DNA from: an uncultured Chloroflexia bacterium
GTDB taxonomy: Bacteria; Chloroflexota; Limnocylindria; Limnocylindrales; CSP1-4
DNA length: 64,000 nucleotides
NCBI GenBank assembly: GCA_963849495.1
Contig: CAWKHN010000012.1
Span: forward strand, 21,906 to 85,905
Reading direction: 5' to 3'
Numbering within the stretch: the stretch's first letter is position 1; each line of letters starts with the position of its first letter. The position numbers were made by a program, and so were the translations under genes. Below the pieces are notes generated by a model that did no database searches, was not told where the DNA came from, and saw nothing but the letters and a program-made list of their open reading frames with translations. Below are positions 5,079 to 20,115 of this stretch, piece after piece.

Positions 5079-6008
5079 TCAGTGGTGTCCGAACGTGCCG
5101 TTGACCTGGTCGGTCGCCCGCTGGGTGACCTCGGTCTTCATGCTGTCGGCCTGGGCCTGCGTGATGGTCCCGGCCTTGACCTGGGCGGCGAGCTCGTCGA
5201 GCCCGTCCTGGACGAGGGCGTCGATCACCGTCTGGGTGGCGACGTTGTGGGCCTTGGCGACGTCCGCGATCGTCTGGCCGCCCTGGAGGGCGGTCTTGAG
5301 ATCGGCCTCGGTGATCCCGATCGCCTTGGCGACGACCGAGGCATCGCTGACAGCTTCATTGCGGCCGAAGCCGCCCGGGCCGGCGTGATCGCCTCGCCCG
5401 GGGCCGGCCCTGAACGTGCCGTTGACCTGGTCGGTCGCCCGCTGGGTGACCTGCGTCTTCATGCTGTCGGCCTGGGCCTGGGTGATGGTCCCGGCCTTGA
5501 CCTGGGCGGCGAGCTCGTCGAGCCCGTCCTGGACGAGGGCGTCGATCACCGTCTGGGTGGCGACGTTGTGGGCCGTCGCGACCTGCGCGATGGTCTGGCC
5601 GCCCTGGAGGGCGGTCTTGAGATCGGCCTCGGTGATCCCGATCGCCTTGGCGACGACCGAGGCATCGCTGACAGCTTCATTGCGGCCGAAGCCGCCCGGG
5701 CCGGCGTGATCGCCGCCCTTGCCGGGACCCGGATGATCGCCATCCGCTTTCGGGTTCGTGTCGGCATCTGTGTTGCCCGTGGCGGCGGGCGTCGTGGTTG
5801 CTGCGGGGGTCGGTGAGGCGGCGTCCACTGCCAGCGGCCCGACGATCGATGCTGCGGCGATCCCGCCGGCCACGATCGTCCCGAGCGCAGCCGCCTTGAT
5901 GCCGTGGCCGCGCCGACGGACACGCGGAGTCGTGGGGACGGCAGCCTCGGGCGAGCCGAACGGGTCGCCGGGAAGAAACGGTTCCGGCATCTCGTTGTCG
6001 TTGGTCAT
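5079..6008 (-). CDS. Secreted or membrane-anchored hypothetical protein with two near-identical ~100-aa helical domains
   Basis: Arg-rich stretch, hydrophobic helix and AVDA motif, a Thr/Pro linker, then the duplicated AVSDASVVAKAIGITEADLK...DQVNGTF domain. Confidence 0.85.
   Translation of the reverse strand: MTNDNEMPEPFLPGDPFGSPEAAVPTTPRVRRRGHGIKAAALGTIVAGGIAAASIVGPLAVDAASPTPAATTTPAATGNTDADTNPKADGDHPGPGKGGDHAGPGGFGRNEAVSDASVVAKAIGITEADLKTALQGGQTIAQVATAHNVATQTVIDALVQDGLDELAAQVKAGTITQAQADSMKTQVTQRATDQVNGTFRAGPGRGDHAGPGGFGRNEAVSDASVVAKAIGITEADLKTALQGGQTIADVAKAHNVATQTVIDALVQDGLDELAAQVKAGTITQAQADSMKTEVTQRATDQVNGTFGHH
5091..5714. repeat. Intragenic direct repeat, two ~303-bp copies with 321-bp period (5091-5393 and 5412-5714)
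   Basis: Copies align base by base with about ten mismatches by eye. Confidence 0.92.
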
Positions 6009-6050
6009 CGGGGTTCCTTTCAAGGTGCGGTGGCCGCCGGGCGGCCCATT

Positions 6051-6145: not shown

Positions 6146-9022
6146 CTACCAGGTCACGAGCTTCCAGATCTCGGGCTCGAGCTCGCCGGGCCGGCCCCCG
6201 ACCTCCGCGAAGATCGCCACCGCCCGCTTGAGGTGGACCATCGCCTCGTCCGGCAGGCCGACGGCGTGGAGCTGATCGGCGAGGTTGTTCTCGACAGCTG
6301 CCTCAAGGTGGCGCTCGCCCGTCCGCCGGCACGCCTCGAGGGCTGCTTCGAGCAGGACGATGGCAGCCCTCCGGTCTCCGGAGGCTGCCTCCACCAGCGC
6401 GAGGGCATTGCGGGCCGCGATCGCCGCCCCCGCGTCCGGATCGGCTTCGGCAAGCTCGAGGCTGCGCAGGAGGACCGTTCGGGCTTCGGCAAGGTCACCG
6501 CGTTCCCTGGCGACAAGCCCGAGCACCCGGTGCGCGGCACCGGCCGCGGGATCATCGCCCGCGGCTTGAGCCAGCTCCAGCGCGCGGACCGCGAACGCCG
6601 CCGCCCGCGTGAGCTCGCCCGCCCGGTGGGCGACGACGGACCGTTCCACCAGCGCGCGGGCGAGAAGCCGGTGGTCGCCGACGGTAGACCTGTCCGCTTC
6701 GATCGCGGCGTCGAGATAGCTTGCCGCAGCGACAAGGTCGCCGCGACGTGCGTGCACCCGGCCGAGGCGGAGCTCCACCCCGGGCAGCCCTGCCTCGTCC
6801 GTGACCGCAGCGGCGGCCTCCAGTGCTGCGATCGCGCCCGCGTAGTCTCCGACCGCGGTCCGAACCTCGCCGAGGGCAAGCTGGATCCCGGCAACGTCCG
6901 GGTGCCCGAGCGCAAGCGCAGTCTCGAGGTGAGCGACGGCCTCGCGCGGGGCGTACAGCGCGCGCTCACGGAGGCCCGCCTGGCGGAAGGCTTCAGCCGC
7001 CTCAGCGTCACGTCCTGCCTCGCGCTCGTGGACCGCCACCTGGACGAGGCGGCCGGGATCGTCGCGGTGGGCCGGGTCGGCGCGCAGCAGGTCGGCCGTC
7101 CGGCGGTGGAGCAGCCGGCGGCGGGCCAGGCCGATCGCCTCGTGGGCGGCTTCGCGAAGCCTCGCGTGGGAGAAGTCGAACGCGATCCCGGGCCTCGTCC
7201 CGACCTCTCGCACGATCCCGTGTCGGACCAGCTCCTCCAGCGCCGTGAGCGTCTCATCCTCCGACCGGCCGCTGGTTCCCCGGACCAGCGAGAGGTCGAA
7301 CGAGCGGCCGATGACGGCCGCGGCGGCCAGCACCTGGCCGGCCGTCTCGCTCACCCTGGAGAGTCGTTCGCGCAGCAATGCGCGGACCGTCCTCGCGGGC
7401 CCGTCCGCGCCAGGCGATCCGGCGGCGAGCGCTTCCACGATGTACAGGGGGAGGCCTTCCGAGGCCTCGACCAGCGCGTCAACCTCGACCGGCCGCAACC
7501 CTGCGTCGGCGGCGGAGGCCGCCAGCGTCGCGACGACGTCACGGGACAGCCGGCCCAAGGTAACGGACACCACCCCGGGAAGAACCTCGATCGTCGTCGC
7601 AAACGCCGCGCCGGGCGGATCGAGATCCTCGGGCCGCCAGGCCAGCAGGAGCAGCATCGGACGTCCGGCGAGGCGCCGGGCGAGGTACGTCAGCACCTCC
7701 CGCGAGGCGTCGTCGGCCCAATGGAGGTCCTCGACGATGACGAGCCCGGGCACTGGCCCGGCGACGAGTGCGGCCAGCGAGGTCGCCAGGGCGTCCAAAA
7801 GGCGGGCGCGCGCGCCGGGGAGGTCTCCGGGTGCGTCGGGTGCGCTCCGGCGGCCGCCGGCGCGTGCCGCGCTCGCGGGGAGCGCCACGAGTCGCTCCAG
7901 CTCGCCGAGCGTCGCGTCGGGCAGGTCGCGCAGGCGGTCGAGCGCATCGTGGCGCGCAAGGCCGGCACGCAGCAGCTCGATGATCGGCCCGTAGGCGATG
8001 CCGCTCTCGGACGCGAACGCCCGCGCGCCAAGGGTCACGCCACCGGCAGCCTCCACGGCCCCGGTGACGGCCTCCGCGATCCGGGTCTTGCCGATCCCCG
8101 CCTCGCCGGTCACAGCCACGACCCGCCCATCCGTGCCCGCGGCCCGGTACGCCGACAGGATGGCCGCCAGCTGGGCATCGCGCCCGACCATCGGCAGCCG
8201 ACCGGGGGCAACCGGCGCCGAGGCCACGATGATCGAGCCGGGCTCCGGCTGCGGGATCGTCACGCTGAGGCGGCCATTGCGGATCGCCTCATAGAGCTCG
8301 GTGGTCTCGGCAAGGGGGGCCACGCCCAGCTCACGCTCCAGAACCGCGACGCACGCCCGGTACTGGCGGATCGCCCCGGCGCGATCCCCGGACCGGGCGA
8401 GGTACGTCATCAGCCGCCGATGCGCGGGCTCGTCGAGCGAGTCGAGGTCGACGAGCCGCTGCGCAGCCGCGATCGCCCCGTCGAGGTCCCCGGACGCCTC
8501 GGCAGCCGATGCCAGCCGGTCGAGCACTCCCATGACGCTCCGGTCGACGGAGACCGACCGCGTCGCCCGCCAGTCGTCGAACTCGGGGCTGTCGCGCAGG
8601 GAGAACCCGACGAGGAACGGGCCGCGGGCGAGATCCGCGGCGGCTCGCAGCGCGTCGGCATCCGACGTGGACGTGGCAACCTCGAGCACCGCGAGATCCA
8701 CCCACGCCCCGTCGAGCTCGACACTGGAGCGGTCGACGCGGAGCCACCGGTCGCCAAGCGCCGCCCGGAGGACCGACAGCGTCCGCCGGAGGGCGCCCCG
8801 GGCCGACTCGTCGTCCGACTCGGGCCACAGCATCGCGGCGAGCTCCTCGCGCGCCAACGGGCGTCCCTCCACTGCCAGCAGCGCGAGGATGGCGAGGGCC
8901 TTGCGCGTGTCCACGACCAGGGGCACGCCGTCCACTCGAACCTCGAGCGGACCGAGGATGCGGATCTGAAGCCCAGCCGGCGAAACGGGCTCCGAGGCCG
9001 TCGTGGTCACGGAGTGAGACAT
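6146..9022 (-). CDS. SARP/AfsR-like transcriptional activator: winged HTH + BTAD + STAND/AAA ATPase + TPR
   Basis: IRILGPLEV...LWPESDDESARGALRRTLS (wHTH), DLARGPFL...FDDW and DEPAHRRLM (BTAD), VGRDAQL...GEAGIGKT (Walker A), VEDLHWAD (Walker B), then TPR helices. Start placed at ATG 9022. Confidence 0.92.
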   Translation of the reverse strand: MSHSVTTTASEPVSPAGLQIRILGPLEVRVDGVPLVVDTRKALAILALLAVEGRPLAREELAAMLWPESDDESARGALRRTLSVLRAALGDRWLRVDRSSVELDGAWVDLAVLEVATSTSDADALRAAADLARGPFLVGFSLRDSPEFDDWRATRSVSVDRSVMGVLDRLASAAEASGDLDGAIAAAQRLVDLDSLDEPAHRRLMTYLARSGDRAGAIRQYRACVAVLERELGVAPLAETTELYEAIRNGRLSVTIPQPEPGSIIVASAPVAPGRLPMVGRDAQLAAILSAYRAAGTDGRVVAVTGEAGIGKTRIAEAVTGAVEAAGGVTLGARAFASESGIAYGPIIELLRAGLARHDALDRLRDLPDATLGELERLVALPASAARAGGRRSAPDAPGDLPGARARLLDALATSLAALVAGPVPGLVIVEDLHWADDASREVLTYLARRLAGRPMLLLLAWRPEDLDPPGAAFATTIEVLPGVVSVTLGRLSRDVVATLAASAADAGLRPVEVDALVEASEGLPLYIVEALAAGSPGADGPARTVRALLRERLSRVSETAGQVLAAAAVIGRSFDLSLVRGTSGRSEDETLTALEELVRHGIVREVGTRPGIAFDFSHARLREAAHEAIGLARRRLLHRRTADLLRADPAHRDDPGRLVQVAVHEREAGRDAEAAEAFRQAGLRERALYAPREAVAHLETALALGHPDVAGIQLALGEVRTAVGDYAGAIAALEAAAAVTDEAGLPGVELRLGRVHARRGDLVAAASYLDAAIEADRSTVGDHRLLARALVERSVVAHRAGELTRAAAFAVRALELAQAAGDDPAAGAAHRVLGLVARERGDLAEARTVLLRSLELAEADPDAGAAIAARNALALVEAASGDRRAAIVLLEAALEACRRTGERHLEAAVENNLADQLHAVGLPDEAMVHLKRAVAIFAEVGGRPGELEPEIWKLVTW

Positions 9023-9055
9023 TGCGCGTAACGGTACCGCGCCGCGGCCAGATCT

Positions 9056-9088
9056 CGTAACGTTCTGCAAACGGCGCCGTTCCACCAT
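9056..9088 (+). promoter_or_regulatory. Direct-repeat activator box plus -10 (site 1): CGTAACG-ttctg-CAAACG ... CACCAT
   Basis: TAACG and AAACG are 11 bp apart, and a NANNNT hexamer sits at offset 27-32. Same geometry as sites 2 and 3. An extra CGTAACG lies at 9027. Confidence 0.6.
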
Positions 9089-9096
9089 CCGAGGCC

Positions 9097-9186
9097 ATGA
9101 CCGCGTCCCGAGCCGTGCCCAACGTCGCACGCGTACCCGTCCCGCTTGCCGTCGCCATCTCGGCCGTCGCGCCGGAGCGACCTTGA
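9097..9186 (+). CDS. Putative 29-aa leader peptide (MTASRAVPNVARVPVPLAVAISAVAPERP)
   Basis: ATG 8 nt after the site-1 -10. Its TGA overlaps the ATG of the next gene (TGATG). Confidence 0.4.
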   Translation: MTASRAVPNVARVPVPLAVAISAVAPERP

Positions 9187-10412
9187 TGGGCGCGACCGAC
9201 AGCCGGAGCGGCGCACGGGCGGAGGCCCGGCTTGGGCGCCTCCCGACGGCGGCTCTCTGGGCAGTGATCCTTGTCCTCGCCACGGGGGGCCTGGCCAACG
9301 TCCTGCTGCCGGAGACTTCAACTCAGAACACCGACGCGATCGCCTTCGTGCTCTCGGCGGTGATCACGCTGCTGTTCGGTAGCGTCGGCTCGCTCGTCGT
9401 CAGCCGGCAGCCGGCCAACGCTGTCGGCTGGTTGCTGTGGCTCGTGGGCGTCCTCATCGGCCTGAGCATGGCATCGACCGCGTTCACGGCGTGGAGCCTG
9501 AGCGCGTTCGATGCGCAGCTGCCCGGGACGGTAGTCGCCGCCTGGATCACCCAGTGGACGTTCAGCCCGACCCTGGTCATCACCCTGCTATTCCTGCCCC
9601 TCCTCTTCCCCGACGGCCGGCTTCCGTCGCGGCGCTGGCGCTGGGCGCTCGGGTTCGCCACCCTGGCCGCCGTCGCCGCCGGCCTGCCAGACATGCTCCA
9701 ACCCGGCCCGCTCGAGCCGACGGGGATCCCAAATCCGACCGGTTGGTCGGGTAGCCCCTCACTGCTGGACGCGCTGCGGGCCTTCAACTCGATCAGCCCG
9801 ATCCCCGCGTTCCCGGTCGTGGTCGCGTCCGCCGTCGTCCGCTTCCGGCACGGCAGCGCCATCGAGCGCCAGCAGCTCAAGTGGTTCGGGGCCACGGTCG
9901 CGCTCGCGCTGATCTCGCTCGCCGTGGCGGTGATCGCCCCCGACCCGATCGGGTACGCCGGCTTCTTCGGGGCGATGGTCGCTGTCGCCCTCCTGCCGGT
10001 CGCGATCGGGATCGCCATCCTGCGCTACCGCCTGTATGCGATCGACCGCCTCATCAGCCGGTCGATCTCGTGGGCCATCGTCAGCGTGAGCCTCACCGCC
10101 ATCTTCGTCACCGTGCTCGTCGCGCTCCAGGCGGCCCTCGCCGGGGTCACCCAGGGCGGCACCCTCGCGGTCGCCGCCTCCACCCTCGCGTCGTTCGCGC
10201 TGTTCCAGCCGTTGCGACAGCGGGTCCAGGAGATCCTCGACCGGCGCTTTGATCGTGCTCGCTACGACAGCCATCGACTCGCAGACGCCTTCGCCGAGCG
10301 CCTGCGGGACGAGGTCGACCTTGCCGAGATCTGCGACCAGATGCTCGCGACCGTGGCGACGGCCGTCCGTCCTGAGCACGGGTCGGTCTGGCTGAGAGGA
10401 GGTGGCACATGA
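9186..10412 (+). CDS. Multi-pass membrane sensor-like protein, array member 1 (ends in an N-terminal GAF fragment)
   Basis: About 9-10 hydrophobic segments. Motifs RQPANAVGW, LFPDGRLPSRRWR, ERQQLKWF, ILRYRLYAIDR and FQPLRQRVQ...DRRFDR...RLRDEVDL...VRPEHGSVWLR. Confidence 0.9.
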   Translation: MGATDSRSGARAEARLGRLPTAALWAVILVLATGGLANVLLPETSTQNTDAIAFVLSAVITLLFGSVGSLVVSRQPANAVGWLLWLVGVLIGLSMASTAFTAWSLSAFDAQLPGTVVAAWITQWTFSPTLVITLLFLPLLFPDGRLPSRRWRWALGFATLAAVAAGLPDMLQPGPLEPTGIPNPTGWSGSPSLLDALRAFNSISPIPAFPVVVASAVVRFRHGSAIERQQLKWFGATVALALISLAVAVIAPDPIGYAGFFGAMVAVALLPVAIGIAILRYRLYAIDRLISRSISWAIVSVSLTAIFVTVLVALQAALAGVTQGGTLAVAASTLASFALFQPLRQRVQEILDRRFDRARYDSHRLADAFAERLRDEVDLAEICDQMLATVATAVRPEHGSVWLRGGGT

Positions 10413-10602
10413 CCGCGCCCGCACGCAACGGGCGATCGAGTGGTTCGGGCGCGTGACCCAGCCCGACGCCGTCACCGCGCCTCGCCCGCTGCGGTCGCCC
10501 GCCCCTCTCGGCGCCCCGCTCGCGGCACTCGCCTTCCCGGTGCTCGGATGGCGCCCGTGAGGCCCCGTGCCGCCCATCGGCGAGCCGCCGGGCGGCTCCT
10601 GC

Positions 10603-10635
10603 CGTAACGTTCCCGGAACGGAGGTTTCAGAGGAT
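10603..10635 (+). promoter_or_regulatory. Direct-repeat activator box plus -10 (site 2): CGTAACG-ttccc-GGAACG ... GAGGAT
   Basis: TAACG and GAACG at 11-bp period, GAGGAT at offset 27-32, and the in-frame GTG start at offset 39. Confidence 0.65.
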
Positions 10636-10641
10636 CACCTG

Positions 10642-11952
10642 GTGAGCCAGAGCGTCCCAAGCCCCAGGCCACTCGATCCGGAGGATCGTGGCCGTGCGCC
10701 GCTCGCAAAGCCGCCCGACGGTCCTGCCGCGGTCGGCCGCGTGTCCGCGCGCACGTGGCTCGCCGGGATCGCCTGGGCCGCCTCCGCCGCGCTCGGCGGC
10801 CTCGGCATCGCCTTGCTTGCCGCGACATGGTCGACCAATGTCCCGGGCGTGTGGGGAGTTCGCGGCTTCTCGATTGCGCTCGGGCTCGCGTCGGCATCGA
10901 TCGGCGTCGTCGTGGTCGTCCGGGTGTCCGGCAATCCGATCGGTTGGCTGTTCATGACCAGCGGCCTCCTGGGCGCACTCCAAGGCTTCTGCGTGCAATA
11001 TGCGGTTGCCGGGTTGCTCGCTGCGCCGGGCAGCCTGCCCGGCCCGGAGCTGGCGGCCTGGGTGGGGGGCTGGGCCTGGATCCCCGCCATGAGCGCCATG
11101 GGGGCGTTCCTGCCGTTGGTCTTCCCGTCCGGAAGCCTGCCGTCGCCCCGCTGGCGACCCTTGGTCGCGTTCGGTGCGGTGTGCGCGAGCCTCGCCACCC
11201 TGGGCGCCATGCTCCTGCCCGGTCGGCTCGACAACTCCGCGTACCTGGACAATCCGTACGCCGTCGTCACCGGGTTCCCGGGTCAGGCGCGCTGGATCGC
11301 TTACCTGCCGCTGATCATGGCCATCGTGGTGGGCGGCGTCACGCTGGCCGTAACGTTCCGCCGATCCACCGGCGAGCGACGCCAACAGCTGAAGTGGCTC
11401 GCGTTCTCGGCCGCCATCGCCGCGGCGGCCCTGGCCCTGGTCCCGATCGGCCAGGCCGGGATCGGCGTCCTGCCCGCCTGGGCATCGAGGGGGACTGAGA
11501 TCCTGGTGGTGCTCGGTCTGCTGGGCATACCCGTCTCGGCCGGGGTCGCCGTGCTCCGCTACCGGTTGTGGGAGATCGACCGGATCGTCAGCCGAACCAT
11601 CAGCTACCTGATCGTCAGCGCCGTGCTCGCCGCTCTGTTCGCTGCCACCGTCGTTGGGCTCCAGGAGCTGCTGAGCCCGGTGACCGGGCAGAGCACGGTC
11701 GCGGTGGCAGCCGCCACGCTGCTCGCCTTCACGGTGTTCCAGCCGCTGCGTCGCCGCGTCCAGCTCACGGTTGATCGTCGCTTCAATCGGGCGCGCGTGG
11801 ATGCCCAGCGCGTCCTCGACGGGTTCGCCGCCGGGCTGCGCGACGACACGGAGCTCGACTCCCTCAACGATCACCTCGAAATGGTCGTCGCGCGATCGAT
11901 GCAGCCGCGGGCAGTCGGCATCTGGACACGGCAGGGAGGGACGGCACGGTGA
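10642..11952 (+). CDS. Multi-pass membrane sensor-like protein, array member 2
   Basis: GNPIGWLF, FPSGSLPSPRWR, RRQQLKWL, VLRYRLWEIDR and FQPLRRRVQ...MQPRAVGIWTR. GTG start 6 nt after the -10. Confidence 0.9.
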   Translation: MSQSVPSPRPLDPEDRGRAPLAKPPDGPAAVGRVSARTWLAGIAWAASAALGGLGIALLAATWSTNVPGVWGVRGFSIALGLASASIGVVVVVRVSGNPIGWLFMTSGLLGALQGFCVQYAVAGLLAAPGSLPGPELAAWVGGWAWIPAMSAMGAFLPLVFPSGSLPSPRWRPLVAFGAVCASLATLGAMLLPGRLDNSAYLDNPYAVVTGFPGQARWIAYLPLIMAIVVGGVTLAVTFRRSTGERRQQLKWLAFSAAIAAAALALVPIGQAGIGVLPAWASRGTEILVVLGLLGIPVSAGVAVLRYRLWEIDRIVSRTISYLIVSAVLAALFAATVVGLQELLSPVTGQSTVAVAAATLLAFTVFQPLRRRVQLTVDRRFNRARVDAQRVLDGFAAGLRDDTELDSLNDHLEMVVARSMQPRAVGIWTRQGGTAR

Positions 11953-12062
11953 CAGTCGTCGACCTCGACGCCGTCCGGGCGGGACTGGTGGGCGCCGTCG
12001 ATGAGATCCTGAACCCGACGGACCTGAGGTTATGGCTCCGGATGGACGGCGGAGGCCGATGA
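11949..12062 (+). CDS. 37-aa microprotein made only of the array C-terminal tail (MTVVDLDAVRAGLVGAVDEILNPTDLRLWLRMDGGGR)
   Basis: Not in the ORF track. GGAGGG RBS, GTGA overlap with the member-2 stop and ATGA overlap with the member-3 start. Matches the VDL...V...P....WLR tail. Confidence 0.7.
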   Translation: MTVVDLDAVRAGLVGAVDEILNPTDLRLWLRMDGGGR

Positions 12063-13285
12063 TGAGGATCCGCCCCGGGCTCGCGGCGCATGCCCTGGCT
12101 GTTGGCGCGCTGCCGCTCGACGTCGGATTCCTGCTGCTCCTCCTGCCGGCCCCGGCTGAGGAGCTGGCGCAGCTCGGCACGACCTCGGCCGGCGGGTTCG
12201 TGCTGGGGGCCACATTTCCGATCGTCGGCTGGATGGTCGCCTCGAAGCGGCCGGGCAACCCGATGGGCTGGATCTTCCTGGGCGTCGGGCTGTCGCAGGC
12301 GCTCGACACGTTCGCATCGCAGTACGCGATCGTCGGCCTGCAGACCGCGCCCGGATCGCTGCCTGCCGCCGATGTCATGTCCTGGATCGCCAGCTGGGTG
12401 TGGGCACCGGGCTTCGCCTTGCTCCTGACCGCGACGGTGCTCCTGTTCCCCGACGGGCGTCCACCGTCGCCCCGCTGGCGGCCCGTGCTGTGGGCCGGGG
12501 CCCTGGCCGTCGTCCTCCTGGCCATACCGATCGCGATCATCGCCTGGCCCAGCCGGGGCGTCGCCCTGCTAGGCCCCGGGCCCGGCCCGTCCGACGTGGT
12601 GGCTGGCGATCCGGTCGCCACTGCCGTGCTCGGTTTCCTCGGTGCGCTCACGAATGTCGGGCTGCTGTTGCTGCTCGCGTCGGGTGCCTGCTCGGTTGCC
12701 GGGCTCATCATCCGCTTCCGGCGTTCCGCGGGCGTCGAGCGAGCGCAGCTCACATGGTTCGCGGCGGCCGGTGTCGTCGAGATCGCGCTGATCGTGGCAT
12801 CAACGCTCGAGATCCTCCCGTGGCCGCAGTTGAACACGGCGCTCGCGATCGCCGTGTCACCGCTGCTCCCGGTGGCCGCGGCGATCGCGATCCTCCGTTA
12901 CCGGCTGTACGAGATCGACCGGATCGTCAGTCGGACGATCGGCTACCTGCTCGTGTCGGGCCTGCTCGCGGCGATGTTCGCCCTCCTGGCGGTCACGCTG
13001 CAGGGGCTGCTGGCGCCGTTCACGGAGCGCAACGGCCTGGCGGTCGCCGGATCGACGCTCGCGGTGGCAGCCCTGTTCCAGCCGGTACGCCGCCGGATCC
13101 AGCGGGCCGTGGATCGCCGCTTCAATCGCGCACGAGTGGATGCCGAACGGATCGAGGGCGAACTTACCAACCGCATCCGCGACCAGGTCGATGCCGGCGC
13201 CGTTGTCGGCCTGCTCGTCACGTCCGTCGAGCAGACGGTGCAACCGGCGTTCAGCACAGTCTGGATCCGGGAGCGGGCTCGGTGA
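12059..13285 (+). CDS. Multi-pass membrane sensor-like protein, array member 3
   Basis: RPGNPMGWIF, LFPDGRPPSPRWR, ERAQLTWF, ILRYRLYEIDR and ...VQPAFSTVWIR. Confidence 0.9.
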   Translation: MMRIRPGLAAHALAVGALPLDVGFLLLLLPAPAEELAQLGTTSAGGFVLGATFPIVGWMVASKRPGNPMGWIFLGVGLSQALDTFASQYAIVGLQTAPGSLPAADVMSWIASWVWAPGFALLLTATVLLFPDGRPPSPRWRPVLWAGALAVVLLAIPIAIIAWPSRGVALLGPGPGPSDVVAGDPVATAVLGFLGALTNVGLLLLLASGACSVAGLIIRFRRSAGVERAQLTWFAAAGVVEIALIVASTLEILPWPQLNTALAIAVSPLLPVAAAIAILRYRLYEIDRIVSRTIGYLLVSGLLAAMFALLAVTLQGLLAPFTERNGLAVAGSTLAVAALFQPVRRRIQRAVDRRFNRARVDAERIEGELTNRIRDQVDAGAVVGLLVTSVEQTVQPAFSTVWIRERAR

Positions 13286-14559
13286 CCGGTCCTGCCGGCG
13301 CGCAGCTCCAGTCGCCGACGCCTCCCAAGTTCGATCCAGCGCAACGAGGCGCAATGTCCAGTCAACGGCCGAGAGCGGGCGGCCATCCCTCGAGCCCGGT
13401 TGCGGCGGTCCTCGCTGCGGCCCTCACTGTTGGCGTCGGGACGGCCGCGATCGCGTTCCTGCTGATCCCGGCCCGCGCTGGCATCCAGGGGACCGGGCTC
13501 TCCCCCGACGTGGCAATGACGGCAATGTTCGTCCTGGTGACGCCGGTCCTCGGCGCGTTGCTGGCGGTCCGCCAGCCTGGCAACCGCATCGGCTGGCTGT
13601 TCATTGCGGTCACCTTCTTCTTCGTGATCGGATTCCTGGGCGACGGGGTTGCGCGGCACGCGGCGCCGACGCCGTTGATCGCGTCGTTCGCGGTAATCAG
13701 CAACGCGCTCGGCTACTTCGCGTTCGCCCTGCTGTTCGTGATCTTCCAGGTGTTCCCGACCGGACAGGTCCTTCCCGGTTGGGGCTGGCTGCCCGTGGGC
13801 GTGATCGCCGGCTCGGCGATGCAGGCGATCACCGGCCTGGTCGGCCCGCTGTCCTTGGTGCCGCCGATCCCAGACCTCTCGAACCCGCTGGTGCAGCCTG
13901 CCTGGCAACCGGCGCTCGACGCGATCGACCTCGTCACCGGCCTCGTGTTGGTCGTGGTGGCGGTCGGCACCATCGTCGCGCTCGCGATCCGATTCCGACG
14001 TGCCAAAGGGGTCGAGCGCCAGCAGATCAAGTGGTTCGCGTGGGCCGGGATGCTCACGGTCGGCCTGCTGGCAGCGAGCCTGCTCAGCAGTCCGTGGGGT
14101 CCAGTCTCGGGCGCGCTGTGGGCGCTCGCCCTGGCGAGTCTCGTCCTGATTCCGGTCGCCACGACCGCAGCGATCCTGCGCTACCGGCTGTGGGACATCG
14201 ACCGGATCGTCAGCCGCACCCTGTCGTACGCGATGGTGAGCGCTCTCCTGGCGACGGTCTTCGCGGCGCTCGTGCTCGGGCTTCAGGAGCTGCTGGCGTC
14301 GGTCACGGGTGCGGGCACGATCTCGATCGCCGCTTCGACCCTGGCCGTGTTTACGCTGTTCCAGCCAGCGCGGCGGCGGGTCCAGCGCATGGTCGACCGG
14401 CGGTTCGACCGCAGTCACTACGACGCCGAGCTGGCCCTGGCCCGTCTTGCCGCCCGCCTGCGGAGCGAGACCAGCTTCGACCTCGTTGGCCTCGAGGTCG
14501 AGGCTGCCATCCGTCACGCCCTGGCGCCCTCGCGGGTGGCCGTCTGGACGCGTCGATGA
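13282..14559 (+). CDS. Multi-pass membrane sensor-like protein, array member 4
   Basis: GTGA overlap (alternative ATG at 13354). RQPGNRIGWLF, FPTG, ERQQIKWF, ILRYRLWDIDR and ...LAPSRVAVWTRR. Confidence 0.9.
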   Translation: MTGPAGAQLQSPTPPKFDPAQRGAMSSQRPRAGGHPSSPVAAVLAAALTVGVGTAAIAFLLIPARAGIQGTGLSPDVAMTAMFVLVTPVLGALLAVRQPGNRIGWLFIAVTFFFVIGFLGDGVARHAAPTPLIASFAVISNALGYFAFALLFVIFQVFPTGQVLPGWGWLPVGVIAGSAMQAITGLVGPLSLVPPIPDLSNPLVQPAWQPALDAIDLVTGLVLVVVAVGTIVALAIRFRRAKGVERQQIKWFAWAGMLTVGLLAASLLSSPWGPVSGALWALALASLVLIPVATTAAILRYRLWDIDRIVSRTLSYAMVSALLATVFAALVLGLQELLASVTGAGTISIAASTLAVFTLFQPARRRVQRMVDRRFDRSHYDAELALARLAARLRSETSFDLVGLEVEAAIRHALAPSRVAVWTRR

Positions 14560-15767
14560 GGCCGGCTGGACGCCGCCCGCGGCTGCGGTTGGCGATCATC
14601 CTCGGGGTCGCGGCGGTCGCGCTCGCGTTCGTCGCCGTGGGGGTCCCGATGGGGATCGCGACACTCGATCAGTACGGGCCGACCGGGCCACTGTTCATCG
14701 TCATCTTCCCGGCGATCGTGCTGTCGCTCACGTTGGTCGGCGCATTCGTGGCGGCTCGCGTGGCCAACCCGGTCGGCTGGCTGCTGGAGCTGTCCGGGCT
14801 CGCTGCCGCGGTCGGCATCTTCGGCGGGACGTACGTGAACTACGACCACGACACGGCGGCCGGACTGCCGCTGGTGGTCCCGCTTGCCTGGCTGTCGAGC
14901 TGGACGCTCCTGCCCGCGATCGGGATGCTCCTGGTCTATGTCCCAATGCTGTTTCCGAGCGGCCAATTCCTGGGACCCCGGTGGCGGGCGCTGGGCCTGA
15001 TCGGCCTGCTGGGCGTCGCCGGGACGATCGCATCCGGCTTCACGCCGGGTCCGTTGTCGAGCACCCCGTGGATCCAGAACCCGGTCGGGATCCCGGGCGC
15101 GGGGGACGCGCTGGCGGTGGTCTCGACCCTGTCCAACCTTGCCACGCCATTCGTGTTCGGGGGTGCCGTGATCAGTGTCTTCGTTCGCTACCGGCGGGCG
15201 GACACGGTCGAGCGCCAGCAGCTCAAGTGGTTCGGCCTCGTGGCCGGCATCGCGGTGGTGGCCTTCGTCGTCTCCATCCCCAACAACGGGCCGGTCTCGG
15301 ACATCGCCTGGGAGGTCGGCCTCGTCACGCTGGTGCTGCTGCCGGTGGCGATCGGGATCGCGATCCTCCGCTACCGCCTGTGGGACATCGACCGGATCGT
15401 CAGCCGGACGATCGCTTGGGTCGTGATCACCACGATCCTGGCGGCCGTGTTCGCCGGCCTGATCGTGGGCCTGCAGGCGGCGCTGGCACCCGTGACCGCG
15501 AGCAACTCGCTCGCCGTGGCAGCCTCCACGCTGGCTGCGGCCGCCCTGTTCCAGCCCCTTCGCCGCCGGGTTCAGACGGCTGTCGATCGCCGGTTCAATC
15601 GGAGTCGCTACGATGCCGAGCGCACGGTCGGCAGCTTCGCCGAGCACCTCCGGGGCGTCACCGATCTGGCCGAGATCAGCGACGGCGCGGTCGCGGCGGT
15701 CGTTCGGTCGCTCAGCCCGAACGGTGCCGCGGTCTGGATCCGATCACACGGGGAGGGGGACGCATGA
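14556..15767 (+). CDS. Multi-pass membrane sensor-like protein, array member 5
   Basis: ATGA overlap. NPVGWLL, LFPSGQFLGPRWR, ERQQLKWF, ILRYRLWDIDR and ...LSPNGAAVWIR. Confidence 0.9.
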   Translation: MRPAGRRPRLRLAIILGVAAVALAFVAVGVPMGIATLDQYGPTGPLFIVIFPAIVLSLTLVGAFVAARVANPVGWLLELSGLAAAVGIFGGTYVNYDHDTAAGLPLVVPLAWLSSWTLLPAIGMLLVYVPMLFPSGQFLGPRWRALGLIGLLGVAGTIASGFTPGPLSSTPWIQNPVGIPGAGDALAVVSTLSNLATPFVFGGAVISVFVRYRRADTVERQQLKWFGLVAGIAVVAFVVSIPNNGPVSDIAWEVGLVTLVLLPVAIGIAILRYRLWDIDRIVSRTIAWVVITTILAAVFAGLIVGLQAALAPVTASNSLAVAASTLAAAALFQPLRRRVQTAVDRRFNRSRYDAERTVGSFAEHLRGVTDLAEISDGAVAAVVRSLSPNGAAVWIRSHGEGDA

Positions 15768-16963
15768 CGCTCCTGCGGAGCCGGCCGATGCGCGCGATCC
15801 CGTATCTCGCCGTTGCGACCCTGACCGGCGGCCTCTCGGCCTGGTTCAACCAGGACTGGTCGGGGTGGTTGATCGTCATCTCGTTCTCCGCCGTCGGCAT
15901 GTTCCTGCTCTGGCGGCGCCCCCGGGAGATCGTCGCCTGGCTCCTGGTCGGAGCCGCGATCCTGTTCCCGTGGGTTGGCAGCAGCCTGCCGGGCTCGGCA
16001 TCGCAGGTCGTCGACGGCAACGCCGAGCCGGTGGTCACGCTGTTCGCCTGGCTCAACTCCTGGTGCAGCAGCCTGTTCTTCGGGGCCTTCGTCGCGCTCG
16101 CGGCGCTGTTTCCGGCCGGCCGCTTCCCGGCGGGACGGCTTGGGATCGCCAGCCGCATCGCCGTCGCGACACCGATCGCGTTCGCCGTCGTGCTCGCGTT
16201 CGCCCCAAGCGTCACGATCACGTTCGTCGACGGGACCGCGGCGGCGGTCGGCCTGCCGCTCGCCATCTTCCCGGACTGGCCTGGTTGGGCGGTTCTCCAG
16301 GTCGGGGTCTACTTCGCCGTGCTCACGGCTCTCGCGGTCTCCGTTGTGACCCTGATCGTCCGATTCCGGCGAGCCCGCGGTTCGGAACGCGCCCAGCACA
16401 AGTGGCTGCTGGCGGCCCTGGCCGCGACCCTGGGCTCGGTGATCTTCGCCTTCGCGATGATCCTCCTGGTCGATCCCGTCGGCACCTGGATGTGGGTGGC
16501 AGCCGTGGTTGCCTATCCCACGATCCCGATCGCGATCGGGATCGCGATCCGCCGCTACCACCTGTACGACATCGACCGCGTCGTCAGCCGGACCATCGCC
16601 TATCTCGTCGTGACCGGGCTGCTCCTCGTCATCTTCGGCGGGCTCGTCGTCAGCCTCCAGGCGGCTCTTGCCGGGCTTACCCAGGGACAGACCCTCGCGG
16701 TCGCAGCCTCGACCCTGGCTGCCCTCGCCCTGTTCCAGCCGCTGCACCGTCGTGTGCAGGCGACCGTGGACCGTCGGTTCGATCGGACGAGCGTGGATGC
16801 GCAGCGAACCATTGACGGCTTTGCCGGGCAGCTTCGAGACGAGGTCGATCTCGCGACGCTGCGCGGCGTCCTGGTCGCGACCGCGGATTCGGCCGTCCGC
16901 CCGGACGGGGTGGCCCTCTGGGTTCGTAACGTCTCGAAGGCTCGATCATCCGTGGTTTCGTAA
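15764..16963 (+). CDS. Multi-pass membrane sensor-like protein, array member 6
   Basis: ATGA overlap with GGAGGGGG RBS. LFPAGRFP, ERAQHKWL, IRRYHLYDIDR and QLRDEVDL...VRPDGVALWVR. Confidence 0.9.
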   Translation: MTLLRSRPMRAIPYLAVATLTGGLSAWFNQDWSGWLIVISFSAVGMFLLWRRPREIVAWLLVGAAILFPWVGSSLPGSASQVVDGNAEPVVTLFAWLNSWCSSLFFGAFVALAALFPAGRFPAGRLGIASRIAVATPIAFAVVLAFAPSVTITFVDGTAAAVGLPLAIFPDWPGWAVLQVGVYFAVLTALAVSVVTLIVRFRRARGSERAQHKWLLAALAATLGSVIFAFAMILLVDPVGTWMWVAAVVAYPTIPIAIGIAIRRYHLYDIDRVVSRTIAYLVVTGLLLVIFGGLVVSLQAALAGLTQGQTLAVAASTLAALALFQPLHRRVQATVDRRFDRTSVDAQRTIDGFAGQLRDEVDLATLRGVLVATADSAVRPDGVALWVRNVSKARSSVVS

Positions 16964-16991
16964 CGATGTCCGGACACGCACGCATGAGGAT
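16959..16991 (+). promoter_or_regulatory. Direct-repeat activator box plus -10 (site 3): CGTAACG-atgtc-CGGACA ... GAGGAT
   Basis: GAGGAT at offset 27-32 and ATG at offset 39, as at site 2. An extra CGTAACG lies at 16925. The TAA stop of member 6 lies inside the motif. Confidence 0.65.
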
Positions 16992-16997
16992 CTGGTC

Positions 16998-18641
16998 ATG
17001 ACAGCACTGACCCGTCCATTCCGGCGCCTGCGCGGACGCCAGGACGTCCCATCGGTCGACGCGGCCGTCGCCGAACCGGCGCCTGCCACGGAGGAGTCGT
17101 CCGGTATTGCGATCGACATTCCGCATTCGGACCCGCTGTTCGCATACCTCCAGTCGGCACCGGGGCCGGTGGACCTCACGAAGCTCGAGCTCGCGTCCGA
17201 GGTGCTCGAGCAGCTTCGTGAGGCCGGCGTGGCCCTCGTGGTGCCGCTGGTCACCCAGGGCGAGCTGATCGGCACCCTGAACCTCGGTCCACGGCTTTCC
17301 GAGCAGGACTACTCGACGGACGACCGACGGCTGCTGGCCACGCTTGCCGCCCAGGCTGCGCCCGCGATCCGCGTCGCCCAGCTCGTCCGTGAGCAGGCGG
17401 CGGAGGCGGCTGAACGCGAGCGGTACGAGCAGGAGCTGAAGGTCGCGCAGCTGATCCAGCAGCAGTTCCTGCCGCACGAGCTGCCGAACCTCCCCGAGTG
17501 GCAGATCGCGGCCTACTACGGCCCGGCGCGTGTCGTGGGCGGCGACTTCTACGACTTCATCGACCTCGGCGAGGGCCGGATCGGCGTGGTCGTCGGCGAT
17601 GTCACCGACAAGGGGGTCCCTGCCGCCCTGGTCATGGCCCGCACCCATTCGATCATGCGCGCCGAGGCACCGCGGCTCATCGATCCGGGCAAGGTCCTCG
17701 CACGCGCCAACGAGCTGCTGGTGCCGGAGATGCCGCCGCGGATGTTCGTGACCTGCCTCTACGGCGTGCTCGAGCCCGCGACCGGCCGGTTCAGGTTCGC
17801 CAACGCCGGCCACAACCTGCCCTATGTCCGGACCGCAGACGGCGTGATCGAGCTGCGGGCGACCGGGCTGCCGCTCGGCCTGCTGCCGGAGATCAGCTAC
17901 GAGGAAACCGTGGGAACGATCGCTGCCGGCGACGCGATGCTGCTGTACTCGGACGGCGTCGTCGAGCAGCACGGGCCGGGGCGCGAGATGTACGGGTTCC
18001 CCCGGCTCCGCGAGGCGATGGCCACCAACGAAGCCGGCAGCCGCTTGCTGGATCGCCTGCTCGAGGGCCTGCACGCGTTCACCGGCGCAAGCTGGGAGCA
18101 GGAGGACGACATCACGCTCGTCACGCTGCGCCGAGCGGCGGCGGTGGCCGGGGACTGGTCCGAGGATCGGCCGGAGGTCGAGCTCACCCGTGATGATGCG
18201 CCAGCGGTCGACGATGGCGAGGTTTTGGCCTCGTTTACCATCCAGGGCGCGATCGGCAACGAGCGCGAGGCGATGGAGCGAGTCGCGGTGGCCGTGGCCC
18301 CCCTCGGTCTGGCCGAGTCGCGCCTGGAGCGCCTGAAGACTGCCGTCGCCGAAGCCGTCATGAACGCGATCGAGTACGGATCCCAGGGGAATCCCGACGT
18401 CCCGGTGGACGTGCGGGTCGACGCGGATGCCGGGGAGATCCGGATCCAGGTGACGGATCGCGCGCTGTCGGGCCCCGTGCCGGACGTGGAGGCGCCGGAT
18501 CTCGACGCCAAGCTCGAGGGTCGCCAGAAGCCGCGCGGCTGGGGGCTGTTCCTCATCCGCCACATGGTCGACGGGATGGATGTCCACGCCGCCGACGGTC
18601 TGCAGACCGTGACCCTCACCCTCGCCCGGGACGGGCGCTGA
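16998..18641 (+). CDS. Partial GAF + SpoIIE/RsbU-type PP2C phosphatase + RsbW-like HATPase fusion
   Basis: GAF C-terminal part (VALVVPLVTQGELIGTLNLGPR...DDRRLLATLAAQAA) and a coiled coil. PP2C motifs VGGDFYD, GDVTDKG, MFVT, NAGH, YSDG and DDIT. HATPase motifs EAVMNAIEYG and RGWGLFLI. Confidence 0.92.
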   Translation: MTALTRPFRRLRGRQDVPSVDAAVAEPAPATEESSGIAIDIPHSDPLFAYLQSAPGPVDLTKLELASEVLEQLREAGVALVVPLVTQGELIGTLNLGPRLSEQDYSTDDRRLLATLAAQAAPAIRVAQLVREQAAEAAERERYEQELKVAQLIQQQFLPHELPNLPEWQIAAYYGPARVVGGDFYDFIDLGEGRIGVVVGDVTDKGVPAALVMARTHSIMRAEAPRLIDPGKVLARANELLVPEMPPRMFVTCLYGVLEPATGRFRFANAGHNLPYVRTADGVIELRATGLPLGLLPEISYEETVGTIAAGDAMLLYSDGVVEQHGPGREMYGFPRLREAMATNEAGSRLLDRLLEGLHAFTGASWEQEDDITLVTLRRAAAVAGDWSEDRPEVELTRDDAPAVDDGEVLASFTIQGAIGNEREAMERVAVAVAPLGLAESRLERLKTAVAEAVMNAIEYGSQGNPDVPVDVRVDADAGEIRIQVTDRALSGPVPDVEAPDLDAKLEGRQKPRGWGLFLIRHMVDGMDVHAADGLQTVTLTLARDGR

Positions 18642-18644
18642 CCG

Positions 18645-19019
18645 ATGGAGGTAGCCATGAACGAGCGGCGACTCGACATCGAGGTGATCACCTCGATCCC
18701 CGGGGAGGCTCGGCTTGCGATGCGCGGTGACGTCGACATCGCGGCCGACGAGACCCTGGCCTCGGCCTACAAGGCCGCGGCATCGGCCGGCGCCACCCGC
18801 GTCGTCCTCGACTTCACCACCGTCGACTACATCAACTCGACCGGCATCGCTCTGATCGTCCGCCTCCTCGCCGAGGCCCGTCGCGATCATCGCGACGTCA
18901 TCGCGGTCGGTCTGTCCGATCACTACCGGGAGATCTTCCGGATCACCCGCCTGTCCGACTACCTCACCATCGCCGACGGCGTTTCGGCAGGCAGCGTTCC
19001 AGAGGAGGGCAACCGATGA
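18645..19019 (+). CDS. STAS-domain anti-sigma-factor antagonist 1
   Basis: GDVD...VVLDFTTVDYINSTGIALI...IFRITRL. Phosphorylatable Ser present. ATG 18657 is an alternative start. Confidence 0.9.
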   Translation: MEVAMNERRLDIEVITSIPGEARLAMRGDVDIAADETLASAYKAAASAGATRVVLDFTTVDYINSTGIALIVRLLAEARRDHRDVIAVGLSDHYREIFRITRLSDYLTIADGVSAGSVPEEGNR

Positions 19020-19360
19020 CCGATACCATGATCGAGGTCGGCCAGCACGGCGACGCAACGATCCTGCGCATCCACGGGGACATCACGGGGGGCAGCGAGC
19101 CAGCGCTGATGGACGCCTACAGCCAGGCTGGGTCGGCTCGGTCCGTCGTGCTCGACTTCGGCGATCTCGAGTACATGAACAGCGGTGGGATCGGGCTGCT
19201 GGTGACACTGCTGGTGCGCACGCAGCGAGCCGGCCAGAAGCTGCTCGCGGTCGGCCTGACCGAGCACTACCGCCAGATCCTGGCCCTGACGCGCCTCGAC
19301 GAGGCGATCTCCATCCACGACGACGAGCCGGCGGCACTGGCCGCGGCCGCCTCCACCTGA
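19016..19360 (+). CDS. STAS-domain anti-sigma-factor antagonist 2
   Basis: VVLDFGDLEYMNSGGIGLLV...ILALTRLD. ATGA overlap. Confidence 0.9.
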   Translation: MTDTMIEVGQHGDATILRIHGDITGGSEPALMDAYSQAGSARSVVLDFGDLEYMNSGGIGLLVTLLVRTQRAGQKLLAVGLTEHYRQILALTRLDEAISIHDDEPAALAAAAST

Positions 19361-19374
19361 ACGGAGCGTTCCCC

Positions 19375-20115
19375 ATGACCACCCAGCCTCGCACTCCCCG
19401 CGACAAGGAGTCCTGGGCACGTCCCGTTGACCGGCTGTCCACGACCGCGAAGACCGGCGGCATGGACACCGTCACCGGCAAGCGCGTCTCGGGCCCGATC
19501 CAGGGCTTCGGGCAGATGTGGCAGAAGACGTTCAAGGTGAGGCTCGACGGCGTCGACCTCGACCCGGAGGCGGTCATCGCGCACTGGAAGGCCGGCTTCC
19601 CGACCTTCTGGCCCAAGGGAGCCGCGTTCTACGCCCCCCTGGCGGGCATTACGCCCGGCGAGGTCGCGCTGCTCGAGGTGGCACCCGTGCCCGGTTCGCC
19701 TGTGAAGATGTCGACCGGCGTGCTGGTGATCTACGCTGACAACGAGTCGTTCACGTTCATGACGCCCGAGGGTCACGCACTGTCCGCATGGATCACCTTC
19801 TCCGCCTACCGGGACGGCGACGTCACCGTCGCCCAGGCCCAGGCCCTCGAGCGGACGAGCGATCCGTTCATCGAGCTCAGCTACATGTTTGGCGCAAACC
19901 GCTCGAACGACCGATTCTGGGAGCGGACCCTGGAGAACCTCGCTGTGTCGCTGGGTGTCGCGGCGCCGGTCATCGAGGCCCAGAAGGTGTGCGTGGACAG
20001 GCGGCGCCAGTGGCGGTACGTCCGCAACCTGCGGCACAGCGCGGCGGTGAACATGGCGATCGGCACCGTCACTGCGCCGGCGCGCTGGATGCGTCGGCGG
20101 CGGGCCACCGGCTGA
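19375..20115 (+). CDS. Hypothetical protein (possibly DUF1990/SRPBCC-like)
   Basis: SFTFMTPEGH..S.WITF segment resembles DUF1990-like proteins. Co-oriented in the operon. Confidence 0.75.
   Translation: MTTQPRTPRDKESWARPVDRLSTTAKTGGMDTVTGKRVSGPIQGFGQMWQKTFKVRLDGVDLDPEAVIAHWKAGFPTFWPKGAAFYAPLAGITPGEVALLEVAPVPGSPVKMSTGVLVIYADNESFTFMTPEGHALSAWITFSAYRDGDVTVAQAQALERTSDPFIELSYMFGANRSNDRFWERTLENLAVSLGVAAPVIEAQKVCVDRRRQWRYVRNLRHSAAVNMAIGTVTAPARWMRRRRATG

Follow-up and report, generated by a model that had tools for sequence, protein, structure and literature searches.

The 64,000-nucleotide (nt) stretch of an uncultured Chloroflexia genome analysed here (contig CAWKHN010000012.1, positions 21,906 to 85,905; hereafter the window) carries six paralogous receptor genes followed by the gene of a SpoIIE-type phosphatase. 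Between the second and the third receptor (members 2 and 3) lies a forward-strand open reading frame (ORF) of 37 codons with a GTG start (11949..12062, stop included). Sequence comparison with related arrays makes it close to certain that this ORF derives by in-frame loss from a seventh receptor gene formerly located between members 2 and 3. It is, moreover, likely that this gene relic is still translated, acting as a coupling bridge between its two neighbours. The original prediction had presented the ORF as a microprotein consisting only of the docking tail of the receptors, a soluble, sensor-less plug on the phosphatase, and had named the in-frame scar of a lost seventh receptor as the alternative; it is this alternative that the related arrays bear out, with a full gene, a partly deleted copy and a differently built remnant found in three of them.

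Origin of the 37-codon ORF

In the metagenome contig L041, an intact receptor of 392 amino acids (aa) (L041:1826-3004) is encoded exactly between the orthologs of members 2 and 3, its ATG overlapping the stop of the former and its own stop overlapping the start of the latter; the orthologs on this contig are 62% (member 2), 91% (member 3), 94% (member 5) and 95% (member 6) identical in aa sequence to those of the window. The same gene occurs in the same place as a 281-aa ORF in G061, which is among the closest relatives examined (93%, 93.5% and 89% identical in member 3, member 5 and the phosphatase, respectively). There, two in-frame gaps interrupt it, the shorter (7 residues) within the conserved RxPGNxxGW motif and the longer spanning 104 residues, and the conserved RYRLYEIDR motif has substitutions. 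G021 has a 35-codon ORF composed of the parent's first 78-81 nt and last 27 nt (last 9 codons), with breakpoints unlike those of the window, while G085 retains no remnant, and its member 3 ortholog begins directly at an ATGA on the member 2 stop. The comparison of this position across relatives, proposed together with the original prediction, has yielded a full receptor, a shortened gene, a remnant and nothing at all.

The best two-piece fit of the window ORF to the L041 and G061 genes consists of the parent's first 5-9 nt and last 105 nt. The head remnant (11949..11957, + strand) comprises the start codon and two codons of the lost receptor, with the best junction falling after nt 5-9, and the tail remnant (11958..12059, + strand) comprises its last 34 codons; the exact junction is not fixed to the nucleotide, the block of member 2 and the relic being ~35% diverged at the nt level from both L041 and G061. 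Over the last 105 nt of the ORF, stop codon included, 67 of 105 positions are identical to L041 and 68 of 105 to G061, and the relic tail shares 19 of 34 aa with the G061 tail. About 355 of the 392 parent codons are gone, including all membrane segments and both conserved motifs. An internal in-frame deletion of ~355 codons removed every membrane helix and the conserved core of the seventh receptor, and left behind the start codon with two codons and the last 34 codons. Since both ends of the parent survived, the relic retains the parent's start on the member 2 stop and the parent's stop on the member 3 start.

All three deletion derivatives (window, G061 and G021) are in frame, an outcome with P = 0.037 by chance. 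The alignments trace the decay of a single gene by three independent deletions, none of which breaks the frame, and the series is unusually clear across close lineages, in which the gene is whole, partly deleted, reduced to head plus tail, reduced to its tail, or gone.

The similarity to receptor tails, already noticed in the original prediction, was confirmed with a profile hidden Markov model (HMM) built from 45 tails of relatives, from which the window and the parent-gene family were excluded. In the window, the relic frame is matched at E 4.4e-7 (26 bits), which places it seventh among 1044 six-frame segments and right behind the six real tails, and the next match has an E of 0.16; among the real tails, that of member 2 scores 59.5 bits and that of member 4 is the weakest of the six at 28 bits versus 49-63. 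Genome-wide (3.81 Mb in 27 contigs; 62,499 segments), the model gives 9 matches, and the relic, with an independent E-value of 5.4e-5, is the sole one without a receptor body and, hence, the only orphan tail in the genome. Indeed, its 37 codons specify no membrane helices, and no core motif (RxPxNxxGW, RYRLxxIDR) lies upstream in frame. The peptide aligns with the C-terminal tails of all six window paralogs, and its P23, W29 and R31 are invariant in a 10-sequence alignment. Its tail is 43-51% identical to parent-family tails and 22-36% identical to the six tails of the window itself, and, being nearer to the parent family, is not a local copy; the same identities rule out that it was recently copied from any of those six.

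The ribosome-binding site and the 4-nt overlaps with both neighbours reported in the original prediction are present in the sequence. The Shine-Dalgarno-like GGGAGGG (11934..11940, + strand) is located within the last codons of member 2, the end of its GGAGG core being 9 nt ahead of the relic GTG. At the 5′ end, GTGA (11949-11952) makes the relic GTG share its TG with the member 2 stop TGA (11950-11952); at the 3′ end, ATGA (12059-12062) makes the relic TGA (12060-12062) overlap the ATG at 12059, the member 3 start, and abut the ATG at 12062. The Shine-Dalgarno sequence of member 3, GGAGG (12051..12055, + strand), is embedded in the last codons of the relic. GGGAGGG is not conserved: a variant lineage of ~94% nt identity, described below, differs from it at 11936 and 11937, and L041 and G061 carry GGGCGGGG at this position. 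As the ribosome-binding site and both overlaps come from the parent gene, they are not independent signs of a new function, and start codon and ribosome-binding site alike, being inherited or lineage-specific, have little weight in what follows. The relic also contains a rare codon pair, AGG-TTA (12027..12032, + strand); in the codon counts of 12 window genes, TTA makes up 1 of 763 leucine codons and AGG 26 of 575 arginine codons. Together with the following TGG (12027-12034), this pair creates an ATG at 12032 in frame with member 3 (ORF 12032..13285), while relatives have GGC-GTG-TGG at this site and the member 3 start there is the overlapped ATG.

Relics in related arrays and proposed translational coupling

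According to the reading that we favour, ribosomes ending member 2 would re-initiate on the relic, read its 37 codons and pass to member 3, and the open frame would be retained as a translational bridge within the operon, with the peptide as a by-product. ATGA and TGATG overlaps are described as commonly giving strict termination-reinitiation coupling (PMC6728339), and the report on comEB-comEC describes a case in which an ORF can be needed for its translation and not for its product (bioRxiv 10.1101/2020.12.30.424838).

Related arrays contain other relics with the same arrangement. The tail HMM was run over 11 arrays, namely that of the window, the loci of G021, G009, G016, G020, G061, G085, G010, G067 and G065, and L041, and returned 17 tail matches without a full receptor body. 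Seven of these were dropped (a match at a contig edge, two that form the C-terminal part of genes with an apparent frameshift, a shortened gene retaining the core motif, and three that are first in their array without a same-strand upstream gene), and two relics were added by eye, the 35-mer of G021, which is in frame, and a head-plus-end remnant in G010, which is not. This left 12 internal relics in 7 arrays. An in-frame start overlapping the upstream stop is found in 9 of the 12 (the probability of at least 9 at a chance rate of 1/3 is 0.004), and a start codon overlaps the relic's own stop in 10 of the 12. In G061, for instance, member 6 has collapsed to a 44-codon head-plus-tail ORF, and in G020 a 31-codon ORF (31 aa) joins a parent head to a member 3-type end. 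The relics of G021 (35 aa) and G020 are without the first helix, yet they are in frame and coupled, which argues that the frame is kept for its effect on ribosomes and not for the peptide. These findings hint at a rule for tightly coupled operons: a dead gene would lose sequence without losing its frame, as it is through this frame that ribosomes reach the next gene.

Among relatives, arrays contain between 3 and about 10 receptors. Mini-ORFs of 31-183 codons that join the head and tail of a receptor gene after internal deletion are common in these loci, with cases in L024 (G061), L013 (G021), L014 (G009), L015 (G016), L016 (G020) and L038 (G010). Additionally, G021 has a tail remnant (L013 10024-10083) upstream of the phosphatase gene, with which it shares an open frame uninterrupted by stops.

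The receptor tail as a piece of an apparently split GAF domain

The nature of the tail emerges from fused proteins. Longer homologs of member 3 include single chains with the order membrane module, GAF, SpoIIE and HATPase_c_2 (P0026 and P0033; 906-910 aa) as well as GAF-HisKA_3 kinases with the same module, and P0017 is a natural read-through fusion of receptor to phosphatase. In P0022, the Pfam GAF match spans residues 374-517 (profile 1-132), residue 374 corresponding to the 'DL' with which the tail begins. Twelve of the 21 scanned fused proteins gave a GAF-family match that begins at or before profile position 7, and each of these matches sets in at the tail position or no more than ~12 residues away from it. 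The phosphatase encoded from 16998, on the other hand, has a GAF match that covers profile positions 64-133 of 133 only. Because GAF matches begin at the tail in the fused homologs and the phosphatase supplies positions 64-133 only, the tail can be identified as the N-terminal segment that the latter lacks; it comprises the first helix and strand of a GAF domain that continues at the start of the phosphatase.

The 37-mer itself matches no Pfam family at E up to 0.1, so that it gives no direct match to GAF (PF01590, PF13185, PF13492); by transfer from the fused homologs, it could span at most the first ~30 of the 133 GAF profile positions. Its product would be a free first helix and strand of the domain. 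The relic marks the exact ~30-residue piece at which the GAF domain appears to be split between many receptors and one phosphatase, and, should the split-GAF idea be put to the test, this peptide, tail-only by nature, would serve as a ready-made reagent. The six receptors of the window end in the first ~30 GAF residues, and the domain is complete in the single-chain homologs, which looks like a GAF domain divided between many receptors and a single phosphatase. Residues 36-200 of the phosphatase are nearly invariant in 8 orthologs.

Structure prediction added little on how the tail packs. The AlphaFold2 model of the fusion P0017, made from a 7-sequence alignment, has a mean predicted local distance difference test score (pLDDT) of 63.5, with values below 50 in the tail region (241-333), and is uninformative on the packing of the tail into the GAF domain. 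The model of phosphatase residues 1-200 has a mean pLDDT of 58.8, with residues 38-156 at ~70-87. A VIA-align search with the latter model retrieved the GAF domain 3k2n_B at Z 5.8 (root-mean-square deviation 3.1, 104 aligned; model 33-137 on chain 35-174), but many coiled coils scored equally well (Z 5.5-5.9), and the result is too weak to use.

Weighing the alternatives

Several observations weigh against a bridge and have to be set out together. Member 3 has its own GGAGG and may not need a bridge. The coupling itself we infer from the sequence and from the in-frame bias of the relics, and the census behind this bias covers a small set that is not phylogenetically independent, with the additions by eye and the removal of 7 of 17 matches made before the count. 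The relic has a coding-like GC content of 0.78/0.43/0.84 by codon position, and the conserved tail residues are retained in it. Moreover, contigs from three further metagenome runs (X2, X4 and X5) cover the region from 11804/11818 to 12231-12313 with 30-31 differences and no gaps, so that a lineage of ~94% identity carries the same short form. The 17 sequencing runs listed as containing this stretch are all DNA runs. Compared with the window, this variant has 7 changes in codons 2-37, of which 4 are synonymous, 3 are non-synonymous and 5 lie at third positions; the ratio of non-synonymous to synonymous substitution rates (dN/dS) is 0.28 in the relic (NG86, 7 changes), against 0.22 and 0.28 in the flanking genes, with probabilities of 0.07 for at most 3 non-synonymous changes of 7 and of 0.045 for at least 5 third-position changes of 7. 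This substitution pattern is a small hint of constraint on the peptide itself. Finally, co-folding of the 37-mer with phosphatase residues 1-160 gave a score of 0.46, against 0.01 for the best of 3 controls, which lends weak support to an interaction.

Some of these points speak for a functional tail-only microprotein that is translated, docks into the incomplete GAF domain of the 16998 phosphatase and competes with or replaces the receptor tails, an explanation that we regard as unlikely and that is close to the plug of the original prediction. The identity of the tail as the N-terminal GAF piece, together with a phosphatase that matches the remainder only, lends it some grounding; to this are added the co-folding result, the short form intact in the ~94% lineage at a dN/dS of 0.28, and the retained tail residues. 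The co-folding mark was passed by most solved complexes (58 of 80) and by few mismatched pairs (2 of 110), but at scores of at most 0.60 stand only 7 of those 80 complexes and both passing mismatches. Our runs used our own alignments, so that these calibration counts hold only roughly, and the runs agree in at least 84% of contacts, with a partner pLDDT of at least 65. However, the co-folded pair constitutes two halves of a split domain, and such halves can pass through likeness to solved GAF structures and not through binding by this copy. The co-folding suggested in the original prediction as a check returned weak support, the meaning of which is limited in this way. The dN/dS check proposed there gives a small hint of constraint, on 7 substitutions against the single ~94% lineage, and no tail-only ORF exists in G021, G085, G061 or L041. 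As a tail-only peptide, the product is indeed not conserved across lineages at this position, where G021 has the head with the last 9 codons, G085 has nothing, and L041 and G061 have long genes. Furthermore, the ribosome-binding site and both overlaps descend from the parent gene, only the window has the strong GGGAGGG, and the ORF includes the rare TTA beside AGG. The original prediction had also held that a full-length receptor in relatives, with a short form unique to this genome and untranslated, would speak against the plug; relatives do carry a full receptor at this position, but the short form is not unique. What stands of the plug is the identity of the GAF piece, the weak co-folding and the retention in the ~94% lineage, and what stands against it are the different pieces, or none, kept in other lineages and the inherited expression signals.

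A broader version of this idea would hold that collapsed receptors are not junk, in that repeated in-frame deletion yields soluble tail-only peptides that plug the incomplete GAF domain of the phosphatase and set the baseline of the partner-switching system, the 37-mer being one such regulator under selection in its species. We consider this, too, to be improbable.

Still less do we favour an inert scar, neither purposefully translated nor selected, that is open only by virtue of a recent deletion and of the rarity of stops at ~70% G+C. Short open frames are common at the local GC content of 0.70-0.71 (0.67-0.74 in the window), with 141 ORFs of at least 30 aa overlapping the 17 kb listed; three in-frame parent derivatives (P = 0.037) are not an extreme outcome; and the rare codons AGG-TTA are present. 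Comparison of the relic tail with the G061 tail (dN/dS 0.33-0.37, dS ~1; 0.31 for the member 2 tail) is not discriminating either, since most of the divergence may predate the deletion, and it gives no means of telling changes that arose while the sequence was still a gene from those that arose in the relic. Nevertheless, in-frame, start-coupled relics are over-represented in the census, the short form has outlasted ~6% nt divergence consisting mostly of third-position changes, and both lineages retain a start codon, which is GTG in the window but ATG in the variant. The latter has A at 11949 (which turns GTG into ATG), G at 11954 and A at 11955, and its first 8 nt are thereby identical to the parent head. 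The same metagenomes also contain contigs in which member 3 follows a dissimilar upstream sequence; the final 30 nt of that sequence are those at which the long L041-type gene ends, from which we conclude that long and short forms co-occur in nature.

A chance ORF, an assembly artefact or a non-coding RNA element is highly improbable: the first can invoke nothing more than the general abundance of spurious ORFs in high-GC DNA and is opposed by the HMM matches in the window and genome-wide, the second by independent contigs from 4 runs that span the region without indels (the fourth, X1, with a short form nearly identical to that of the window), and the RNA element was ruled out, as we found no Rfam family in 9000-19500 and no promoter-like or terminator-like site in 11500-12500, and the RNA fold z-score is +0.81.

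Relation to known systems

A gene relic is a known kind of element, of which the window ORF is a new instance, and the ORF should be annotated as a receptor-gene remnant and not as a new microprotein family. It resembles the relics left by birth and death in tandem paralog arrays in that a full-length paralog has shrunk by internal deletion, with intact (L041), intermediate (G061) and other remnant (G021) forms at hand. It is, however, not a frameshifted wreck but an in-frame mini-ORF that shares its start and stop signals with both neighbours, a form that recurs in 9 of the 12 internal relics. These recurrent in-frame relics coupled at both ends, along with the split GAF domain that they mark, are the more interesting by-products of the analysis.

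MicroProteins, a concept from plants, are small proteins with a single interaction domain that titrate larger relatives. Like them, the relic is confined to the interacting part of a larger protein, the receptor, here modelled with weak support onto the incomplete domain of its putative partner; in contrast to them, it is a fragment of a domain (one helix and one strand) and not a whole one, it is not conserved as such across lineages, and it is known here from sequence alone.

With comEB-comEC of Bacillus subtilis and with ATGA/TGATG coupling, as these are described, the locus shares the stop-start overlaps at both ends and a downstream Shine-Dalgarno sequence inside the upstream ORF. The bridge proposed for the window differs in being the remnant of a gene and not a full one, and in that its coupling is deduced from sequence features and the in-frame bias.

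The fused proteins P0026 and P0033 offer the closest architectural parallel, as receptor body, tail and phosphatase of the window together match their single-chain order, but in the window the break in the chain falls within the GAF domain, there are several copies of the receptor part, and the relic corresponds to only the ~30 residues at the split. The literature that we searched, in a limited search that is not proof of absence, contains no description of this receptor array, of tail-only or recurrent coupled in-frame relics, or of the split GAF domain.

Neighbouring genes and further observations

The six receptors are paralogous membrane proteins that matched no Pfam family, and all are encoded on the forward strand: member 1 at 9183-10412, member 2 at 10567..11952, member 3 at 12059..13285, member 4 at 13354-14559, member 5 at 14556-15767 and member 6 at 15764-16963. 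Member 2 has a complete tail of its own, and its stop overlaps the relic start; its orthologs are 56-69% identical in aa sequence in the six loci checked, with matches of up to 69% in three further loci. Member 3, the start of which overlaps the relic stop, has orthologs of 93% (G061), 91% (L041) and 90% (G021) identity. In L041 and G061, no ortholog of member 4 stands between members 3 and 5.

The array is followed by the gene of the partial GAF - SpoIIE (PP2C) phosphatase - HATPase_c_2 protein (16998..18641, + strand; Pfam E-values of 2.1e-50 for SpoIIE and 7e-21 for HATPase_c_2), presumed to be the common partner of the receptor tails, and by two adjacent genes of STAS-domain proteins of the anti-sigma-antagonist type (18645-19360). 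The presence of this STAS pair behind the phosphatase-kinase gene suggests that the array probably feeds a partner-switching module. A BTAD-AAA-TPR regulator is encoded divergently upstream of the array.

Relative to the closest relatives, L041 and G061, divergence is much greater in member 2 and the relic (62-63% aa identity; dS 0.6-1.0) than in members 3, 5 and 6 (91-95% aa identity; dS ~0.2). This contrast suggests that the array consists of two halves that differ in their history and meet near the 3′ end of the relic. On a finer scale, the last 14 codons of member 2 (11907-11949) show 14 differences from the ~94% variant, against 7 in the following 108 nt, and the variant reads like the G061/L041 type at 11907-11949, which is suggestive of a short recombination or conversion patch that also altered the Shine-Dalgarno sequence of the relic. 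Elsewhere in the window, a 314-aa ORF on the reverse strand (5079-6023) contains two nearly identical tandem repeats of ~105 residues each.

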